A stretch of DNA of 63,412 nucleotides, counting the filler, from Globobulimina sp. (taxonomy: Eukaryota), in assembly GCA_003354225.1 (NCBI GenBank). It is 44 parts of 44 records of this genome, joined end to end, with 100 filler letters (N's around TTAATTAATTAA, not from the genome) between each part and the next. Parts side by side here need not be neighbours in the genome. Positions count along the whole stretch, not along the records: positions 1 to 1,344 come from PIVH01018262.1; 43 more parts are not named here. One strand, given 5' to 3'. Below, piece by piece: positions 1-60,526 of the stretch. A program made the position numbers and the translations under genes. Every line of letters begins with the position of its first letter. Position 1 is the first letter of the stretch. The notes below the pieces were generated by a model. It was given only the letters and a program-made list of their open reading frames with translations. It had not been told where the DNA came from and ran no database searches.

Positions 1-854
1 TCTGTATAATTTAATTAAATGTCTCGTCATCCCACGGTCGCGCCAATATTTCTGAACGTCTTCGATGATACCAATCCCCATATCACGTACCGCTGGAGCC
101 ACTGCATGCGGATTCAATAAATTTATTCGAAATTCATCGATTCGATCTATATTATATATAATTTATATGCGAATTTGCGCATATGTTTAGTTTCAAACTG
201 ATATAAAAAATATAAAACAAACCCATGGTATTTGCTTTTTCTTCTTTTTTTGATTTCTTTTTCTTTTTCGCACTCTTTTTCTTCTTTTTCGCTGTCTTTT
301 TCTTTTTTGACTGTTTCTGGACAGTCTTTGCCTTTTTTAATGGCGGCGGGATATCGGGGTCATTCATAATGTCATAATCTGAGTCTTCTTCTTCTTCCAT
401 CTCTTCCTCGCAGTCATCGAATGAATAAAAATCGTCTGAATCCAAAATAATGTCTTTTTCATCTTCAACACAAGCCGCTGCCTCTCGGATTTCTGCTAAA
501 TTCATCGCATTCGCTCCATGTAATCCACAACGAAATATCTCACAGTCGGAGGCTGCTAATAATTCCATTTCTGCGTCGTTTAAATCGTATTTCTCTTTGA
601 CACATTCCACCAAATACCAAATATCGCAACGACCTATATTTTGTATAGAAAAACGTTGCTAAAATTTGTGTTTATAAATAAAATAAAAAAGTACCTTTAA
701 AATCGGCTGCGCCCGTATCAAATGTACAAGCAATGAATCTGTCATCAATCGAATGCTCCACACTGCAACATCCTTGTTTCCATTCTTCGCCGTCTTCCGT
801 AATTCGCGTAGTGATCCAAGCAGTTCCGGGCTGCTTTCCTTTTCTCTTTGGCAT
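1..854 (-). CDS. Spliced transposon-associated companion gene: PHD-like Cys/His finger, acidic tract and Lys-rich tract; 3'-truncated
   Basis: ATG at 854. GT-AG introns at 694-634 and 222-147 join three exons in frame (..DFKG|RCDIWYLVECV..; ..NTMD|RIDEFRINLL..) and the frame stays open to the contig end. Starts about 90 nt inside the terminal repeat at 942-968. Confidence 0.65.
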
Positions 855-941
855 CTTCTAAAAAGGCGTTTGGGAGCTTTTAAAAAAGTGTAGGACTTAT
901 TGTACTGACGGAATTAAAAAGTGTTGTTCAAGAAGTTTTTG

Positions 942-968
942 AAAAAATCAGTACTTATCGGAAAGCCC
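942..968 (-). mobile_element. Terminal inverted repeat of a Harbinger/ISL2EU-like DNA transposon
   Basis: Reverse complement GGGCTTTCCGATAAGTACTGATTTTTT matches 6014-6040 at 25/27, and is flanked by TA (969-970). Confidence 0.75.
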
Positions 969-1344
969 TATTGGTCTTTTGATGCTGCAAATTGTGCTGT
1001 TACTCAAACAAACACTGACAGCATGAGTCCACTGTATGCAAATGGTGCTGTTGCATGGATGGGTGGCCAAAATGACACATTATTCTGGACGGATTATACC
1101 ATAGAAGCCACCATCAACGCAGCATCTGGAGGTGATAACGTTGTGAGTGCAGGGATTATATTTCGTGTTCAAGCTGATGGCGTTGTGAATAATGGCGGAG
1201 ACGTTGGTGATTTTTATGAAGCAATGTTAATTTATTGGAGTACATATAGAGTACATTTGAGGGAATACACCAAGTCTGGTTATATCATCATAAAACAAAA
1301 TAATGCATTGGGTCCTTGGCCATACAATACAGACTATGTATTGC
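969..1344 (+). CDS. Fragment of a concanavalin-like/DUF1080-like beta-sandwich protein, interrupted by the transposon end
   Basis: WTDYTIEATIN...SAGIIFRVQ...DFYEAML motif; no natural start after the terminal repeat. Confidence 0.45.
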
Positions 1345-1444: not shown

Positions 1445-1732
1445 CTTAGTATATACTGAAATTTTTGCGCAACTATTGGATTGTAATACCATAAACCTCA
1501 CAGCAGCAACAGAAAAGCAAACAAAAACTATCGCCAAACAAACCAAAATAAAACAATTGGCGCAAATCAGAAACGAGACAAGTTGTACACCTTTAACATC
1601 GTCATAAACTAATATAACTTGCACAGGGAAACCCCAACAAACACGTACAGCAGTGGTTGACGCGCGATATTTGCAAAATTGCAAAAAACTACGGAATCGT
1701 CCAAAATTGTTTGATAATCGTATTTTCCGATC

Positions 1733-2356
1733 ATGGCAGCTCCAAACAAATCGAAACCAAAGAGTTTATTAGATAGCATTAAAAAAGGAAATCATAAAAA
1801 CAATCTTAAAGAAGTTCCAGAGGATGAAATTCATTTTGTCGCTCCATTTTGTCAGCCAGCTGATATTATTGAATATGAGAAAGTAAGCAATAAATATGGC
1901 GATCTGTTGATAGGAGCAAAGAGTTCAACACATAAAGCAAATCATGATTTCCTGGACAGCTGCAAAGTAAAATGTATTATATCTTTATCAAGAACTCCCA
2001 TTGAAGAAGAATTTAAATTATCGGATGCCATTGATTATCATTATTACGATGCTAAGGACGACAAAGGATTCGAAATAATAAAATTATTCAAACCAATTCA
2101 TAAAATTATGGACGAGAACATCTTAAATGGCAAAAACGTACTGGTTCATTGTGATATGGGTGTATCCCGTAGTGGTGCCATAGCGGTGTCATATTTAATG
2201 AAAACATTAAATATATCTTGCAAAGAAGCATTGGCATTGGCAAAGAAATCACGCAAAGCAATAAGACCCAATGACGGCTTTTTAAAACAACTGCAACAAT
2301 TTGAAACTAAATGTTTGAGAAACGACACTGATGAAAGCAAACAAGATTCACTATAA
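1733..2356 (+). CDS. Dual-specificity protein phosphatase with N-terminal WH2-like motif
   Basis: Catalytic VHCDMGVSRS (HCX5R), SYLM and IRPNDGFLKQL motifs; N-terminal SLLDSIKKG..NLKEV. Confidence 0.93.
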   Translation: MAAPNKSKPKSLLDSIKKGNHKNNLKEVPEDEIHFVAPFCQPADIIEYEKVSNKYGDLLIGAKSSTHKANHDFLDSCKVKCIISLSRTPIEEEFKLSDAIDYHYYDAKDDKGFEIIKLFKPIHKIMDENILNGKNVLVHCDMGVSRSGAIAVSYLMKTLNISCKEALALAKKSRKAIRPNDGFLKQLQQFETKCLRNDTDESKQDSL

Positions 2357-2364
2357 ATAATAAT

Positions 2365-2788
2365 TTATCCTTTGACACCCAACGGTCGCTTAAACGGTGA
2401 AGTTTCATTTCCTAAGCAATAAAACCATGGCAACTCAACAATCAAATTCCGCGGCAAATTATATGTCATATATCTCTCGCGATGCCATTTTTTAATCATA
2501 TCATTCCGTTCTTTGTTATATAGCCATTCGACAATGTCTTGTTCACATCGAAGAGTGCGTAGATCCGAGGATTGGATTTGTACAGAGAATGATTGACATA
2601 TTTTGGCCAATAACTGTTTTTCAGAAAATGCAAGAAAGTTCGAAATAATAAAAGTATAAAATACCTTTGATTTATCGCTTGGATTTGCAAATCTTATTTG
2701 ATATTGAAAGCCATTTATAATTTCATGAACATTCTTTTCGATTTCTTGATATAATGATTGCAAATTTAAAGATTGTTCAACCGATTCC
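2365..2788 (-). CDS. Probable mitochondrial ribosomal protein mL50-like, C-terminal part
   Basis: KQLLAKICQSFSVQIQSSDLRTL...DIVEWL...NLPRNL resembles the mL50 domain. Confidence 0.45.
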
Positions 2789-2888
2789 NNNNNNNNNNNN
2801 NNNNNNNNNNNNNNNNNNNNNNNNNNNNNNNNTTAATTAATTAANNNNNNNNNNNNNNNNNNNNNNNNNNNNNNNNNNNNNNNNNNNN

Positions 2889-3265
2889 AATTCCATTGTA
2901 ATTTGTTTGTCGTTATAGGTGACAATGGACGACAATGTCCGACCGCCGATATAGTTTTGTTTCTCGATTAATAATATCTTTTTATTTGGATATGTTTCAC
3001 GCAAAAAATTCATCTCAATTATTCCGGTTGCTCCTCCACCAACAATTAAAATATCAATGTCAAGATTTTGTGATTTGTCATTTGTTGCATTTGAATCTGA
3101 TAATGATTCAATAATTCGATCTATATTGGACAACAAGACCGAAAAAACCAAGACAAGGAAACAAATCAATAATAAGTGCGTGGTCGTCCATTGTTTGGAA
3201 CTACTTTTATTTGATTTAATCAATGCTTCATCCTCGTTGGAACAAACAGCGAAAGCAGTCGACAT
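2889..3265 (-). CDS. Membrane-anchored FAD-dependent oxidoreductase (amine oxidase family), N-terminal fragment
   Basis: TM helix, then DILIVGGGATG and LLIEKQNYIGGRT (Rossmann plus GG motif). Confidence 0.8.
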
Positions 3266-3689
3266 TGTTTATTTTGCACTCTACTAAATAATAATTTGAT
3301 GAAAAACAATTTAAATAAATCTTTTTGTCCAATTTGCAGCCGATATGACGAATAAAGCCTATATCTGTCAAAATACGATGCAACTCAATTGGCGCGTTAC
3401 CGCAAACGAAATCGAACAGGCCAGAATTGAGCGCACAGAACAATGTCCCATTTTACATTACAATTCGAAACAAAAGTCATTGTGGATACTATATGCCATT
3501 GAAAAGAAAAGCAATGGACAAATATTCGAGAGACAGAATAGCACATAAAAGCAACACACGCGTCGATTTGACGGATTTGTCCATTGCTGACTGGGTTCAA
3601 ACATCACATTTAGTGCACTCATTGACCAACAACGAGAAATTAAATATAAAAGCAATATAATAGCAGCTGCGGTTAAAACATTTTTTGCG

Positions 3690-3861
3690 ATTGAGTTCAC
3701 TTTCGAATCTCATCCCTGCAGTACACGCACAAACTACTTTGCATATAATGCTATTCAAATCATCATAACTCGGAGTTGGAACATATAATTTCCCATTGCA
3801 TATATCATATACTTTTCTGTTGTCGAACACAAACGACAGCTCCGTGTGATCCAGAAGCCAA
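3690..3861 (-). pseudogene. Divergent alpha-tubulin fragment
   Basis: WLLDHTELSFVFDNRKVYDICNGKL..PSYDDLNSIICKVVCACTAGMRFESELN aligns to alpha-tubulin LEHTD..LDNEAIYDIC..PTYTNLN..TASLRFDGALN. Confidence 0.75.
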
Positions 3862-4103
3862 ATTTGCAATAATAATAGGATTCTGATGTGAATTGATTGG
3901 GCATTTTCCATCATTTTCCTGTATCATTTGATTTAAACATTGATTGCAATCTTCATCATTATGATTGCAGCCTAATTCTACCGCATCAAACAAACTGAAC
4001 CACAATCATCACACAAATATGCTTGTGTTGTTATATCATCTTCAAATAATTCACTATTCCATCCGTTATTATTCACCTTTATCAATGAAAGTACTGCATC
4101 CAT
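3855..4103 (-). pseudogene. TRAF-type RING-like N-terminus, frameshifted
   Basis: MDAVLSL...YLCDDCGSVC / DAVELGCNH..CNQCL...KCPINSH, with a frameshift near 3990. Confidence 0.6.
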
Positions 4104-4702
4104 GTGACTAGGATCACCACTTAAAAACAGCAAAAAATAGTATTTTTTGTCTTTTTTTCAGTATTTTTGATGAAAACGCATTCTTAGTTTATTGGTTTTC
4201 GGCCGTGGTCGAGGAGAAATTTCACTTGTGAGNNNNNNNNNNNNNNNNNNNNNNNNNNNNNNNNNNNNNNNNNNNNTTAATTAATTAANNNNNNNNNNNN
4301 NNNNNNNNNNNNNNNNNNNNNNNNNNNNNNNNTCTCATATAAAAACCATACGTTTCTGTTTTGGTGGTGCAGTGTTGGTACCATTTCACGGGAAGATATG
4401 GAGGATGCGGTGTATTTTAAAATTTATATTGCAATAAATGAGGCATATGACCATAATGATAACTTGATTGATTTACAACAATGGGAGAATGTCGGAATTA
4501 TTCAATGATCGAAATCTCCTTTCATTGGTTTGTTTTGACGTGTGTTTGTTTGGTATTTTTAGCGTGTTAATTTGTGCTTGTTCGTCGAATCGCAGTTCAA
4601 CTTTCGAACATATGTTTCCTCACAAGTGTTAGCTTGTTTTCTGATTCCAAAACTTTTTTTGAAGTTATCTCGTCATCATATTTTTTTATATATTGGATCA
4701 AT

Positions 4703-5635
4703 ATGCAAGCTACAAAACAATTAAGCTTCTTAATGCGATCAGCGCGCAGCCGTTGGAAGCAAAATAGAATGTTTTCATACAACTCTGCATTCACAACAGA
4801 ATATTCACCAGATCTGACCGCAAAATATGCTCTGTTAAAAAAGAATATGCATTATTTTTATGATGGACTACAATCGACAGTATTATCTCAATTCGAAATG
4901 TATAACGAAACTGTGGATACTTCAACGATCAAAGTAATTGATATTGCGTGTGGCGATGGTAATTATTCTCGGATATTATCGGATAAGTTTAATTATGATG
5001 AGATTGTTGGTGTTGATATTTCTGAATCGCAAATTGAATCCGCACAAAATAATACTAATATTGAGACATATTCAAATGTAACATATGAATGTTTAGATGC
5101 GTCGTCGTTGTATGACATAAACAATAAATCATTGCAAAATAAATTTGATATTGGTTTAGCAGTTTGGTTTTATAATTATGCAGAAAATAAAGAGACGCTG
5201 TCTCAGTTTATAGAATCTACATTTAATGTTTTGAAAACAAATGGTATTCTCATTGGTGTAACACATTCAATCAATGATATGAATGATGTTAATCTTGGAA
5301 TTTATCAGAATGAGCCGCAATTTGGTTGTCAAACAGTATTTGATGTTTCTGAGGGCATTAAAGAAGGACCATTTGTATGGATATCAGGACAGGAACCAAA
5401 TACATTCAGTTTTAATGGCTATGCGTACAATTTTAATACATATGATACATTATTTAAAGAGTGTGGGTTTAGAAAATTGGAATTTCTGTCTGATAATGAA
5501 TATAAAAGCGGTGAAAATTCAAGTTCAAATCAACAAAAATTATTCCAACAGTTTATAAATTTTATTTCTTACTTTATTTCTGTAATTATATACAGTATAC
5601 ATATACAATATATAATATTATTAATATCTATATAA
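4703..5635 (+). CDS. Class I SAM-dependent methyltransferase (ToxA-like) with probable mitochondrial presequence; C-terminus uncertain
   Basis: VIDIACGDGNYS, VGVDISESQI, FDIGLAVWFYNYA, LKTNG motifs; Arg-rich N-terminus. Confidence 0.85.
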   Translation: MQATKQLSFLMRSARSRWKQNRMFSYNSAFTTEYSPDLTAKYALLKKNMHYFYDGLQSTVLSQFEMYNETVDTSTIKVIDIACGDGNYSRILSDKFNYDEIVGVDISESQIESAQNNTNIETYSNVTYECLDASSLYDINNKSLQNKFDIGLAVWFYNYAENKETLSQFIESTFNVLKTNGILIGVTHSINDMNDVNLGIYQNEPQFGCQTVFDVSEGIKEGPFVWISGQEPNTFSFNGYAYNFNTYDTLFKECGFRKLEFLSDNEYKSGENSSSNQQKLFQQFINFISYFISVIIYSIHIQYIILLISI

Positions 5636-6013
5636 GAAAGAAAATGATGTCTTCTCTGTTCAGTAAACAATGTGATNNNNNNNNNNNNNNNNNNNNNNNN
5701 NNNNNNNNNNNNNNNNNNNNTTAATTAATTAANNNNNNNNNNNNNNNNNNNNNNNNNNNNNNNNNNNNNNNNNNNNATAAATAACATTGTTTGCAGGTAT
5801 GTTGATTGGTTCTAGTAGGAATCCATATTTTGCAGCTCCAATATGATAAGAATACATCCGTATGTAATGCTACATCGTTTACAACAGAAAAAGAATGTCA
5901 ACAAGAAGCAGTTGGGAAAATGGTATTTTCATGGTCTGTTATACAATTAAGTTTGAGTGGATTGATGTGTTGTTGTATCTGTTGTTTTTTTTGTATTCAG
6001 TTGCGAAACATTA

Positions 6014-6040
6014 GGGCTCTCCAATAAGTACTGATTTTTT
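6014..6040 (+). mobile_element. Terminal inverted repeat of a Harbinger/ISL2EU-like DNA transposon (transposase end)
   Basis: TTA|GGGCTCTCCAATAAGTACTGATTTTTT, 65 nt upstream of the transposase ATG. It truncates a host membrane-protein ORF (5777-6013). Confidence 0.8.
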
Positions 6041-6104
6041 TTGCTGTTCAAAAAGTTTTTTTTTTTTAATACCGAACTTATTGAACACCTTTCTAAAAGT
6101 CGCT

Positions 6105-7120
6105 ATGGCAGTCACCGAACGTAATATATTGATGCTATTATTATTAGTAACATTATATTTAACGGAGCCACGATTATTCGCCGCTGAATATAAGAAACGC
6201 AAGCCGCTAATATCAACAACAACATTAGCATTAAATAACGACACGCAATTCATTGGATTATTCGGTTTTAGATATGATATCATTCGGGTCAAATTTTTGG
6301 ATGTTATTGCGCCAATATTACGTTATACGCGCGAAAGTATTAATGAATGGATATTAGGCGGAAGATTACGGCTGTCAGAGAATGGAAGACCGTATAGATT
6401 ACCACCTCATGATCGATGTTTGATGGCATTTATGGTTTTGCGGCATTTTAATGTGAAAATGATGGAAATTACATGGGGTTTATGTAAATCATTGATTTAC
6501 ATGGACTCTTATTTAATATTATCAATTTTTTTAAAGTTGCGCGGTATGGAATTATCATTACCTTTGGTGGGCTCTGCAGCATATAACGCATTGGTTGGAT
6601 GTGGCGTATTTGCAGACAAATTTGATGGTGCTGTATGGATGATGGATGGGCATAATGTATGATTTTATTTCAGTTTGAAACTGTTTTATATACACAAATC
6701 TACACAGATTATTATTCAAAAACCTCCACGACAGCAACGCGAATATTATAATGGACGAAAAAAGAAACATACTGTAAATTATTTGACAGTTCATTCGGGA
6801 TTTGGGAGATTATATCATTGCCATGGCGGCGAAGCCGGACGTATTAACGACATCGAATTATTGCGGCGGAGTGATTTTGGAATAAATATCAATTTATATG
6901 TGGCTATAAACGCAGGTCACTGGGTTATGTGTGATGGAATATGGAGATTTGAAGGTGGATAATATGGAATTTGCAGTTTGAAACTGAATTATTTTGAGTT
7001 TCAAACTGATTTTGAAACAAAGTCACATATAAAATTCAGTTTGAAACTATAGTAATATTGAAATTCAACTCAGTTTCAAACTGAATTTATTTGGATTACT
7101 AAAGGGATACCGTATATTAC
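6105..7120 (+). mobile_element. PIF/Harbinger-ISL2EU-type DDE transposase (DDE_Tnp_4-like), two introns, 3'-truncated
   Basis: HTH-like LPPHDRCLMAFMVLR..WGLCKS; MDGHN|IIIQKP..YYNGRKKKHTVN..GRINDI..VMCDGIW..PYIT. GT-AG introns at 6657-6707 and 6955-7104. Confidence 0.85.
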
Positions 7121-8686: not shown

Positions 8687-8768
8687 CCATCACCGTAGGA
8701 TTCGAACCTACATCCATTTGGTTTGCTTTCCATTCAAACCAATGCTCTACCAATTGAGCTAGGTGCCA
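8687..8768 (-). tRNA. tRNA-like element or pseudo-tRNA with an abnormal anticodon arm
   Basis: Intact D arm (GCTC AATTGGTA GAGC) and T arm (GTAGG TTCGAAT CCTAC). Acceptor stem only partly paired. Anticodon arm TTGGTTTG-AATGGAAAG-CAAACCAA. Confidence 0.7.
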
Positions 8769-43395: not shown

Positions 43396-43614
43396 AATAA
43401 AAATCTGACGCTGAAAACCGGATGCTCTTTCTAAAACGAAGTGTTTCTAAAAGGCAGAATATATGTATGCACCAGCAAATCACCAACAATGGCAACAAAA
43501 CTATATGTTTTGATGATTCGGGCATATCGATAGGATCATGAAAAAAAAGAAAAAAACTTTTCAAACAACAACACATTTTCAGTACATATCGGAGAGCCCT
43601 ATTCCTATCAAGGA

Positions 43615-44653
43615 ATGTCCGTTGTTTCTCTTTTGGCAATACTTTTGCCTGTATTATATGCCCAGAAATATGTCAATGCGCCTGATAATATGGCATATTG
43701 GTCCTATGAATGCAATTCAACAATGTGTCAAGAAGCAATTATCAATTGTCCAACTCATGCAATTTGTAACATATCCTGCGATGTAAGTGAGGCATGCAGG
43801 GATGCACTCATTAATTGGCCTACTAATGATTATTATGGAACAATTTCGTGTGTTGGAGATTATTCATGTTTAGGTGTAAACTTTCCTCATCCTGACCCAA
43901 ATCAAGATTTTACCTTAAATTGTGGAGGAGTGGATTCCTGTGGTTGGGCAGCAGATATTTACTGTCCCAGTAATGCTAATTGCAATATCAATTGTTATGG
44001 TGAAACATCGTGTTATTTTTCTACAACAGATTGGTCACATCCTGGCACTGGTACTATATCATGCGGTGGTTTACGCTCTTGTGTTGGTGTAAATATGCCA
44101 CGCCCTGAGTCAAATACTGGTTTTACGTTTTTCTGTCAACAGATAGCATGTCTCTATGCCACTATTTATTGCCCAACAGATGCAAATTGCAACATTCAAT
44201 GTTCAACTCGATCATGTCAACATGCAAATATTATTTGTCCAATCAATGCAAACTGCAACATTGCCTGTTTAGGAATTCGCGCCTGTCAAAATACAAATAT
44301 ATCGTGGACGTATTGGACAAATGGAATAAATACATTAATATGTGACGATACAGATGCTTGTGTTAATGCAACTGAAATACCACCTATGTCATCCACCGGA
44401 GATCCAACATATTCACCAACATATTTACCAACATATTTACCATCCCGTTTACCAACAAATATGCCAACCCATTTACCAACATATTTACCAATGTATCCAG
44501 AAACTGCAAATCCAACATATGTACCGACGTATTTACCACCCACATATTCCCCATCAATATATCCAGTCAATCAATTTCGTGCTGATTCGGCAAAACAAAA
44601 TCCACGATTCATAGCGTTATATATTGCTGGGAGCATGCTATTGCTCTGTGTTT
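43615..44653 (+). CDS. Cys-rich repeat cell-surface protein with PT stalk and TM helix
   Basis: Signal peptide, repeated IYCPxxAxCNIxC units, PTYxPT repeats, C-terminal hydrophobic helix. Confidence 0.85.
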
Positions 44654-59814: not shown

Positions 59815-60526
59815 TTAAATCTCCTTTAATAAATTTTCAACATATTCAATATGTGATTTTTCCTGGGGTCTCCCACCAACATTCATTTTCAAAAAATATT
59901 TATAAATTGTTTTCTTATCAGTTTCAGAAATTTGACACACATTAACAGATTTATTTTCAAATTTGTTTTTGTCAGACGGATGAAGTTCGTACCAGTATTT
60001 TCCTTCATATTGAAATTTGTTTGTGACAAAATCTACAATAGTTGTCAATCTTTGTTTTCCATCAACAATTTCATATGTATTATCACCAGAATATCCAAGA
60101 TGATTAAAACAAAATTTACCAATATCATAATTGTTAAATATAGAATCTAATAATTTAATTTTATCTTCAAGATCCCAAACATTTCCTCTTTGATAATCAG
60201 GATTAAAATCTGTACCAAAATAAAAAACATTTGTTAATAAAGAGGATAATTGCATTTGTGAATAATTTAATCTTAAATCGTCTTTTTTAAATAAAGGTTC
60301 AGAATTTAAAGATTCGATCTTATCTATACTATACCAATGTGTTATTTTTTGATATCTTCCTTCAATTTTTTTTCCGTATCGTTCTCCATTATCATGTTCT
60401 GTGATATACAATTTCCCATCATATATTTTTTTAATAACAACACAATTTTTTAAATTACCAATCAGAACTTCTTCGTTATCTTCAAAAAATAATGTTGGTT
60501 CTGGACAATTAATCAAATCACCCTTT
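59815..60526 (-). CDS. DUF262 (ParB/Srx-fold, GmrS-like) domain protein, phage-like, 5'-truncated
   Basis: NPDYQRGNVW, LLDSI, EIVDGKQRLTTI, YFLKMNVGG. Confidence 0.88.

Follow-up and report, generated by a model that had tools for sequence, protein, structure and literature searches.

Terminal repeats, a transposase and a Cys-rich companion gene of a probable two-gene Harbinger-type transposon family in Globobulimina sp.

Background

Among eukaryotic cut-and-paste transposases, those of two-gene Harbinger-type elements are the main example of dependence on a separate protein for targeting and import. The transposase and its partner have been domesticated as a pair more than once, e.g. as HARBI1/NAIF1, and in plants ALP1 is reportedly another example of such domestication. 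Here we analyze a stretch of 63,412 bases from Globobulimina sp. (assembly GCA_003354225.1; the whole stretch is referred to as the window), in which one short contig carries a terminal repeat followed by a Cys-rich gene (the companion gene) and another carries the same kind of repeat followed by a transposase gene. A first-pass annotation had taken these contigs for the opposite ends of one Harbinger/ISL2EU-type family with two convergent genes, and had proposed that the companion contains a PHD-like finger that reads chromatin and guides insertion. This proposal turned out to be half right: the two-gene Harbinger-type element holds, whereas the PHD reader does not.

The closest described systems belong to the PIF/Harbinger-ISL2EU-Spy (PHIS) superfamily, whose six groups were compared on the basis of their published descriptions. 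According to excerpts of these descriptions, PIF/Harbinger elements make a TWA duplication and have a Myb/SANT second gene (PMC4482050, PMC4122938). ISL2EU elements duplicate AT in A/AT/T (slashes mark the boundaries), have a second gene for a YqaJ exonuclease and carry a THAP or HTH domain in the transposase (PMC4482050, PMC9179366), while Spy elements insert without duplication in AAA/TTT and mostly have one gene (PMC4122938). Pangu, NuwaI and NuwaII all have a Myb/SANT second gene and make ANT, CWG and C/TNA/G duplications, respectively (PMC4482050, PMC4122938, PMC9179366). Within the same excerpts the partner types of the described groups are limited to Myb/SANT and YqaJ (PMC4482050, PMC4122938, PMC9179366). 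The Myb-like protein of Harbinger is described as binding the transposase, bringing it into the nucleus and binding the DNA at the element ends, and the Myb-like domains of these partners are described as very divergent (PMC9179366).

The window consists of 44 separate contigs, each 1343-1344 bp long, with N-TTAATTAATTAA-N linkers between them, and statements on the whole element are thus pieced together from short contigs. Most contigs have a G+C content (GC) of 0.28-0.38, and long, spliced-looking frames match eukaryotic Pfam families (VPS9, proteasome alpha, HMG box, REJ and DDAH_eukar), which identifies the source as a fragmented assembly of an AT-rich eukaryote. The Pfam scan covered 54 of the 104 window frames of at least 90 amino acids, leaving aside antisense, overlapping and already scanned frames, and recovered no further piece of a transposase, Myb, YqaJ or PHD protein. 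Terminal repeats outside the window were searched for in a metagenome collection, using GGGCTYTCCRATAWGTACTG as query, and in prokaryote genome contigs and viral contigs. Five sequencing runs contain the stretch, none of them listed as RNA. Raw-read support was taken from the Logan contigs of four runs (X1-X4), which are informative on presence and not on absence.

Results and discussion

Two end types that share one terminal repeat

The 27-bp terminal repeat reported in the first-pass annotation was recovered as described: the reverse complement of positions 942-968 is identical to 6014-6040 at 25 of 27 bases. The repeat (GGGCTYTCCRATAWGTACTG) occurs three times in the window, against 0.01 copies expected. 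When its 20-base core (GGGCTYTCCRATAAGTACTG) was used with at most three mismatches, the window matches were 949-968 (minus strand), 6014-6033 (plus strand) and 43580-43599 (minus strand), whereas shuffled sequences gave a mean of 0.01 matches and none of 100 shuffles reached three. The third copy was absent from the earlier annotation.

Scanning the metagenome collection yielded 14 loci, eight of which were accepted. These are the PJEL01 contigs L001-L006, L008 and L011, all of them AT-rich, with a repeat that adjoins TA and with further subterminal sequence in common with the window. The other six (L007, L009, L010, L012, L013 and L014) reside in GC-richer DNA, lack further likeness and were dropped. 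Six matches in prokaryote genomes were likewise dropped as chance or unrelated, because they lie in GC-richer bacterial DNA without TA flank or further likeness. Four of the latter have one coding stretch in common with L009, L013 and L014; it contains KNNPVLIGEP, which we take to be a Clp-type ATPase motif. The viral contigs contained no match to the repeat.

In this way 12 ends were collected at no more than four mismatches, three from the window and nine from the eight PJEL01 contigs, and TA flanks every one of them. An 18-bp subterminal motif is found at offset 29-31 from the terminus in 10 of the 12, and its orientation separates two end types. At the nine A-ends the motif resembles GCTGTTCAAAAAGTTTTT, reads forward and lies at offset 30-31 (recognizable in seven), whereas at all three B-ends (contig 1 of the window, L004 and L008) it is found in reverse-complement form, at offset 29. 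Along one strand, an element thus has inverted terminal repeats and, beside them, the motif as a direct repeat, and this arrangement gives it a polarity. Within the window the B-end is formed by the repeat at 942-968 (minus strand, core 949-968), flanked by TA at 969-970 as a candidate 2-bp target-site duplication, and its reversed motif lies at 923-940 (minus strand; GTTGTTCAAGAAGTTTTT on the plus strand). The A-end comprises TA at 6012-6013, the repeat at 6014-6040 and the forward motif at 6043-6060, the latter two on the plus strand.

Each end type is also tied to a particular coding start. A conserved start context is found at offset 89-92 of A-ends (MAVTERNI, window; MPVSHRN, L002; MAVSGKTY, L011). 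At the B-ends an ATGCC at offset 84-115 opens the frame (MPKRKGKQ, window; MPKRSHNY, L004; MPRRKGNT, L008). Both genes thus start around 90-115 bp inside an end and read inward. Judged by the raw-read contigs, the B-end region is highly repeated, since summed depth peaks there: over 901-990 it amounts to 1501-4773 in X1 and 157-793 in X2, compared to 7-28 for neighbouring unique sequence in X1, figures that do not represent copy number.

The third repeat of the window (43580-43599, minus strand, with TA at 43600-43601) is an A-type end of a non-coding derivative and is 86-89% identical to the ends of L006 and L008 over 65-77 bp. Around 15 bp downstream of it lies the ATG of a host open reading frame (ORF; 43602-44652) for a Cys-rich protein of at least 370 amino acids with a signal peptide and a Pro/Thr-rich tail. 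The derivative has inserted into the promoter or the 5' leader of this host gene.

Evidence that both ends belong to one element

The first-pass annotation had further claimed that contigs 1 and 5 represent opposite ends of one family, and this is borne out indirectly by the orientation of the subterminal motif, by one complete element in another assembly and by a palindrome common to the introns of both genes. The complete element (L008, 715-2247; 1533 bp) is bounded by a B-end (715) and an A-end (2247) that face each other, with TA on both sides within a palindromic CTAA-TA-TTAG. On its B side it retains ATGCCCAGAAGAAAAGGAAAC (MPRRKGN), the first seven codons of the companion, identical to the window start at 17 of 21 nucleotides. 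Its A side retains the transposase start context, in which the ATG found at this offset in the window, L002 and L011 is changed to TTG. The interior consists of other material without any frame of more than 114 codons. The element is a deletion derivative: in its parent, the 5' end of the companion gene was located at one terminus and that of the transposase gene at the other, with both genes reading inward.

A second, independent link between the two contigs is provided by the palindrome AGTTTSAAACT (often TCAGTTTSAAACTGA), which occurs six times in the window (0.03 expected), in all cases within putative introns of contigs 1 and 5. One copy (189-199) is located in companion intron 2 and five in the transposase introns (6672-6682, 6975-6985, 6997-7007, 7038-7048 and 7072-7082), four of these in a single 150-nt intron. 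No copy was present elsewhere in the 63 kb or in 20 fetched loci. The palindrome may be a site to which a protein binds, or else what is left of a tiny nested repeat.

An alternative would be that the contigs derive from two separate elements with the same ends: an autonomous one-gene element that encodes the transposase, and a Cys-rich gene that is a captured host gene or a passenger, mobilized in trans and without a role in transposition. Such an arrangement would account for the fact that no contig joins both genes, it has a parallel in the non-autonomous derivatives L001 and L011, which carry foreign cargo in the form of tRNA genes, and it would agree with the companion being unlike known transposon partners. 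We nevertheless consider it unlikely, as an element from another assembly keeps the first companion codons at its B-end and, at its A-end, what remains of the transposase start, as the end types differ in structure and either type goes with the 5' region of one gene, and as the introns of both genes contain the same rare palindrome. Moreover, no host copy of the companion gene turned up, and only one relative was present in a library of 1.84 billion proteins. On the basis of these sequence comparisons, the reading that contig 1 is the opposite end of the family represented by contig 5, with two convergent genes, is the best one and probably correct.

In the derivatives L001 (787-855, minus strand) and L011 (3741-3809, plus strand) an intact-looking tRNA gene is located around 150-230 bp inside the A-end, with Rfam scores of 53.7 and 48 bits (cut-off 29). 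ARAGORN assigned both the anticodon TTA ('tRNA-Stop'), so that they would decode UAA. The surrounding DNA is only around 80% alike between the two loci, yet cloverleaf and anticodon have been kept. The long open frames of the window argue for TAA as a stop codon of the host. An intron-bearing host tRNA gene in the window (8687-8768, minus strand; 43.8 bits in Rfam) has a D-arm identical to that of both. L008 contains an internal inverted repeat of 104-112 bp (822-925 and 1972-2083; 92.9% alike) that is tRNA-like and has a GGTTCAAATCC T-arm. ARAGORN reported an odd tRNA at 830-901 of this locus, which scored below the threshold of Rfam, and a related piece is present in L011 (4187-4252).

The companion gene

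The companion gene reads inward from the B-end on the minus strand. Its three-exon structure was recovered as first annotated, and so were all motifs noted at the time (CC, DDRFIAC, CDIWYLVECV and FRCGLH). The joined frame has 239 codons free of stops and GT-AG introns. The ATG lies at 854, 114 bp inside the B-end (inward offset 115). Exon 1 (695-854; GC 0.46) encodes the basic N-terminus MPKRKGKQ followed by CC..H..DDRFIAC (MPKRKGKQPGTAW...CCSVEHSIDDRFIAC...ADFK), and it is the first 21 nucleotides of this exon that correspond to the remnant in L008. The predicted intron 1 (634-694; 61 nt, GC 0.18), with junctions aaag/GTACTT and ATATAG/gtcg, splits the Cys-rich region. Exon 2 (223-633) lies in a stop-to-stop frame of 168 codons and encodes RCDIWYLVECV..CEIFRCGLHG..AACV (RCDIWYLVECVKEKYDLNDAEMELLAASDCEIFRCGLHG...AACV), an acidic tract, the sequence PPPLKKAKT and a Lys-rich tract. 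The two tracts were part of the original description and are indeed present, with 21 Asp/Glu among the 46 residues 105-150 and 21 Lys among the 43 residues 150-192. The predicted intron 2 (147-222; 76 nt, GC 0.20) has GT-AG borders as well and contains one AGTTTCAAACT palindrome (189-199). A putative exon 3 (1-146; GC 0.41; DRIDEFRINLL...), which continues in frame for 48 codons without a stop, is open to the contig end and is the least certain part of the gene. An alternative donor inside the codon of Cys43, which would produce C-R-C, was considered and is a candidate only.

Relatives of the companion are extremely scarce. When residues 1-66 of exon 2 were searched with HMMER in a set of 1.84 billion cluster representatives, two proteins matched. 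One of these (P0002, E 5.2e-4) was rejected as spurious on account of a GC-rich internal repeat. The other (P0001, E 1.4e-10), a bare ORF of 125 amino acids, is 52-54% identical to exon 2. Cys64, Cys84, Cys89, His92 and Cys108 (numbering of the joined protein) are invariant between the two, and conservation extends to YDL..EM.LL, MNL.EIRE.AACV, SDY.I..DP..P...KKAKT.QK and the TMG before the donor GT. Past this TMG/GT donor the two sequences gradually lose their likeness, which is what an intron would produce. A word-indexed protein search with residues 1-60 of exon 2, restricted to proteins of near length, returned no relative. Pfam, at E up to 10, had no match to exon 1, to residues 1-66 of exon 2 or to exon 3, and gave only two irrelevant sub-threshold rows for P0001. 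The matches obtained with the whole of exon 2 were discarded, as all were below the cut-offs and fell on the acidic and Lys-rich tracts. With one relative among 1.84 billion proteins, the family is tiny in public data.

One could suppose that the frame is not a functional gene at all and represents a decaying pseudogene or a chance frame beside a solo repeat. Only one locus is seen in full, low-complexity acidic and Lys-rich tracts make up much of exon 2, and the splicing is predicted from the nucleotide sequence, all of which would be compatible with that idea. However, a stop-to-stop frame of 168 codons stands out in DNA of around 35% GC, 239 codons can be joined without a stop, and the GC contrast between the exons (0.38-0.46) and the introns (0.18-0.20) is clear. 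In addition, P0001 is 52% identical, preserves the Cys/His residues and the donor site, and loses its similarity in the intron. A non-functional frame is therefore very improbable. A second copy of 217-519 was found in run X1, which differs from the window at 43 positions and by 5 gaps in around 300 nt (~86% alike). We conclude that the companion gene is real and present in multiple copies.

The Cys-rich module

The joined companion protein has ten Cys/His positions in its Cys-rich region (29, 30, 34, 43, 56, 64, 84, 89, 92 and 108), with a Leu where a PHD finger has its His. The PHD core reads C-x2-W-[FY]-H-x2-C-[VL], the gap that corresponds to Cys43-Cys56 is usually 2-4 residues, and the last pair is C-x2-C. 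The first-pass annotation had interpreted the region as a PHD cross-brace zinc finger with a His to Leu replacement, which would read histone tails and steer insertion to particular chromatin. There is indeed a local resemblance to the family (Pfam PF00628). The spacing of C56-D-I-W-Y-L-V-E-C64-V is that of the PHD core, D-D-R-F-I-A-C43 is similar to the residues ahead of the third Cys, a Cys pair follows 19 residues after the core, the order of the ligands agrees, and a relaxed pattern matches residues 29-89. The five residues that are invariant in P0001 can likewise be cited in support. The deviations are nevertheless considerable: CC lacks a spacer, C43 and C56 are 12 residues apart, the His that serves as fifth ligand is replaced by Leu and the last pair is C-x4-C, so that only one of the four Cys-pair spacings falls within the family range. 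A strict C4HC3 pattern found no match, and the relaxed pattern requires all four relaxations together. The position of the Leu, moreover, lies outside the alignment to P0001, the only relative.

Profile and structure searches did not support the PHD label either. Because intron 1 splits the domain, profile and fold tools were given the unjoined exon halves only. At E up to 10 neither half matched a zinc-finger family in Pfam, and the PDB sequences yielded no match to a zinc finger for either half, the one match at E 1.5 being irrelevant. In the ESM Atlas the best scores (0.87 and 0.80) belonged to unnamed or unrelated clusters and were below the level of 0.9 that we regard as a lead. An AlphaFold2 prediction of the exon 2 part alone, from an alignment of two rows, consisted entirely of helices with a mean pLDDT of 55.1 and a pTM of 0.32, values too low to be read. 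A complex prediction for the exon 1 and exon 2 peptides with two zinc ions (score 0.02, mark 0.34) counts neither way. The titles and abstract openings of the papers listed disclosed no transposon partner with a PHD finger for a Harbinger transposase, and no second Harbinger ORF that joins a Myb-like domain with a zinc finger was found in the literature.

Given these results, a PHD fold is improbable, the binding of histones and a chromatin-biased insertion find no support, and chromatin reading and insertion guidance by the companion are speculation. The region is somewhat more probably than not a zinc-binding module of some kind. A GRF-type zinc ribbon was considered for the first four Cys and is a candidate only. 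The region is best called a zinc-finger-like domain of unknown fold that belongs to no known family.

The transposase

The transposase gene on contig 5 starts with an ATG at offset 92, 91 bp inside the repeat at 6014, in the start context that it has in common with L002 and L011. Exon 1 (6105-6656, plus strand) encodes MAVTERNI...MMDGHN and is followed by an intron of 51 nt (6657-6707) with GT-AG borders and one AGTTTGAAACT palindrome. Exon 2 (6708-6954; IIIQKPPRQQREYYNGRKKKHT...MCDGIW) contains the DDE_Tnp_4 core, including the region of the first two acidic residues of the triad. The match to the profile (PF13359) has an E-value of 1.5e-10 and a score of 41.3 bits, against a cut-off of 24.8, and covers positions 3-81 of 158; the last third of the core, with the Glu residue, lies past the contig end. 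A putative intron 2 (6955-7104; GC 0.25) holds the four clustered palindromes and precedes a putative exon 3 (7105-7120). Neither a THAP nor another domain was detected by Pfam at E up to 1 in the N-terminal 185 residues (6105-6662). Word-indexed searches among longer proteins retrieved no relative for exon 1 (none of 913 candidates) or for exon 2 (none of 14). By its sequence, the protein is a divergent member of the IS5/Harbinger-type transposases.

A model for the element and what weighs against it

Taken together, contig 1 (1-968) and contig 5 (6014-7120) likely represent the B-end and the A-end of one two-gene cut-and-paste family of the PHIS superfamily. The full element would hold the two genes in convergent orientation. 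Its DDE transposase would cut at the GGGCTYTCC... termini and integrate the element at TA in A/T-rich, often palindromic sites, which would create a 2-bp TA duplication. By analogy, the companion may fill the role of the Myb-like protein of Harbinger, i.e. bind the transposase, enter the nucleus jointly with it and bind the element ends. The basic patches MPKRKGK and PPLKKAKT, together with the Lys-rich tract, could act as import signals, while the conserved Cys/His module would bind zinc and is a candidate for the part that contacts nucleic acid or protein. The 18-bp subterminal motif, present once per end in the same absolute orientation, would be the most likely DNA site.

Several observations weigh against this model. 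Among the contigs examined, all of them short, no full-length copy with two genes was seen, and the Logan contigs of the four runs yielded no joints. A tblastn search with five exon peptides against the eight PJEL01 loci and the window gave only self matches below E 0.1, which means that neither gene was detected in the PJEL01 loci. In runs X2-X4 the repeat end is present and no contig was at least 80% alike to 316-900, a result limited by the fact that such contigs reveal presence and not absence. The companion gene is cut off by the contig end after 239 codons, its real DNA-binding domain may lie further 3', and its exons are joined by sequence-based splice prediction. The function of the companion was assigned by analogy, and zinc or DNA binding finds no backing in a family, a structure or a close homolog. 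Finally, the TA at the ends can be read either as a duplication or as the outermost bases of the repeat. A Myb/SANT or YqaJ domain could be encoded in the 3' part of the companion gene beyond the contig.

Insertion site and place among the PHIS groups

The TA before GGGC is preceded by further common bases, as six of the 12 ends read CATTA and the other six AATA. The CATTA ends are all A-ends (six of nine, four with AACATTA), namely 6006-6013 of the window, L001, L002, L003, L005 and L011; beyond these bases their DNA is not alike. The agreement would reflect either a strong preference for the target on this side or a true terminus located a few bases outside GGGC. The flanks of the complete element in L008 read ..CTAATA[element]TATTAG.., which makes a 3-bp duplication impossible (ATA versus TAT), and B-ends read TAT past the repeat. 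A 2-bp duplication of TA fits this element. A 2-bp duplication of AT, with the repeat beginning one base earlier, fits it as well and also fits the six AATA ends, but not the six CATTA ends. A further candidate is that no duplication is made and TA is the outermost part of the repeat, as in Spy. In runs X2, X3 and X4, contigs of 319-320 nt match the host flank at 972-1185 (~95%) and then continue with around 106 letters unlike the element, which possibly hints at a related locus or strain without the insertion.

Membership of the PHIS superfamily follows from the transposase and from the anatomy of the element, that is from the terminal repeats, the 12 ends and the complete copy in L008. Of the initial label 'Harbinger/ISL2EU-type', the superfamily part thus stands, given the DDE_Tnp_4 domain and the multi-copy terminal repeats. 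The ISL2EU part fits poorly, as the flank is TA instead of AT, no THAP domain is seen in the N-terminal exon of the transposase, and no YqaJ domain is seen in the visible part of the companion, whose gene runs off the contig. In common with ISL2EU the element would have two genes and a putative 2-bp duplication in an A/T context; AT, the duplication made there, can be read at six of the 12 ends, compared to TA at all 12.

PIF/Harbinger elements, such as the two-gene elements of fish, agree with the present one in having a DDE_Tnp_4-type transposase without an N-terminal zinc finger, short inverted repeats, an A/T-rich target and a second gene alongside the transposase within one element, a gene that is needed in Harbinger. 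They differ in their 3-bp TWA duplication, compared to TA at 12 of 12 ends here, and in their partner, which has a Myb/SANT-like tri-helix where the 239 residues of the companion offer a Cys-rich module and acidic and Lys-rich tracts. No Myb/SANT match was obtained with Pfam at E up to 10 in exons 1-3 of the companion gene, which runs off the contig. The likeness to Spy is conditional: if TA belongs to the repeat, insertion would have occurred without duplication between A and T residues (CTAA/TTAG in L008). Spy elements, however, mostly have one gene, whereas a second gene is present here.

On its visible features, the element appears to fit none of the six described groups. We tentatively suggest that it may represent an undescribed PHIS group, which would be characterized by TA-flanked insertion, a polarity imposed by the direct 18-bp subterminal motif, a partner in which Myb/SANT or YqaJ gives way to a new module that binds zinc and has acidic and Lys-rich tails, and derivatives with TTA-anticodon tRNA genes that would read UAA. 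If true, the partner slot would be exchangeable, since a third type of partner, unrelated to the others and built on a new Cys-rich module, would occupy it here, and a compact new domain for the binding of DNA or chromatin would become available for study. The evidence is fragmentary owing to the short contigs, and the novelty is moderate; the practical value is limited for now, as the element is seen in pieces and any activity of the companion is a prediction.

Other genes in the window

Two further contigs carry genes with domain matches. The contig at 41868-43208 (minus strand) is occupied as a whole by one open frame of 447 amino acids with the AAA_11/AAA_12 domains of superfamily-1 helicases (E 1e-16), which may encode a helicase of the host or belong to another mobile element. 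At 59818-60525 (minus strand) a GmrSD_N domain, the N-terminal domain of a restriction endonuclease, was identified (E 5e-21) on a contig of 25% GC. Such a domain is unusual in a eukaryotic assembly, and the contig may originate from a bacterium, a virus or a transferred gene.

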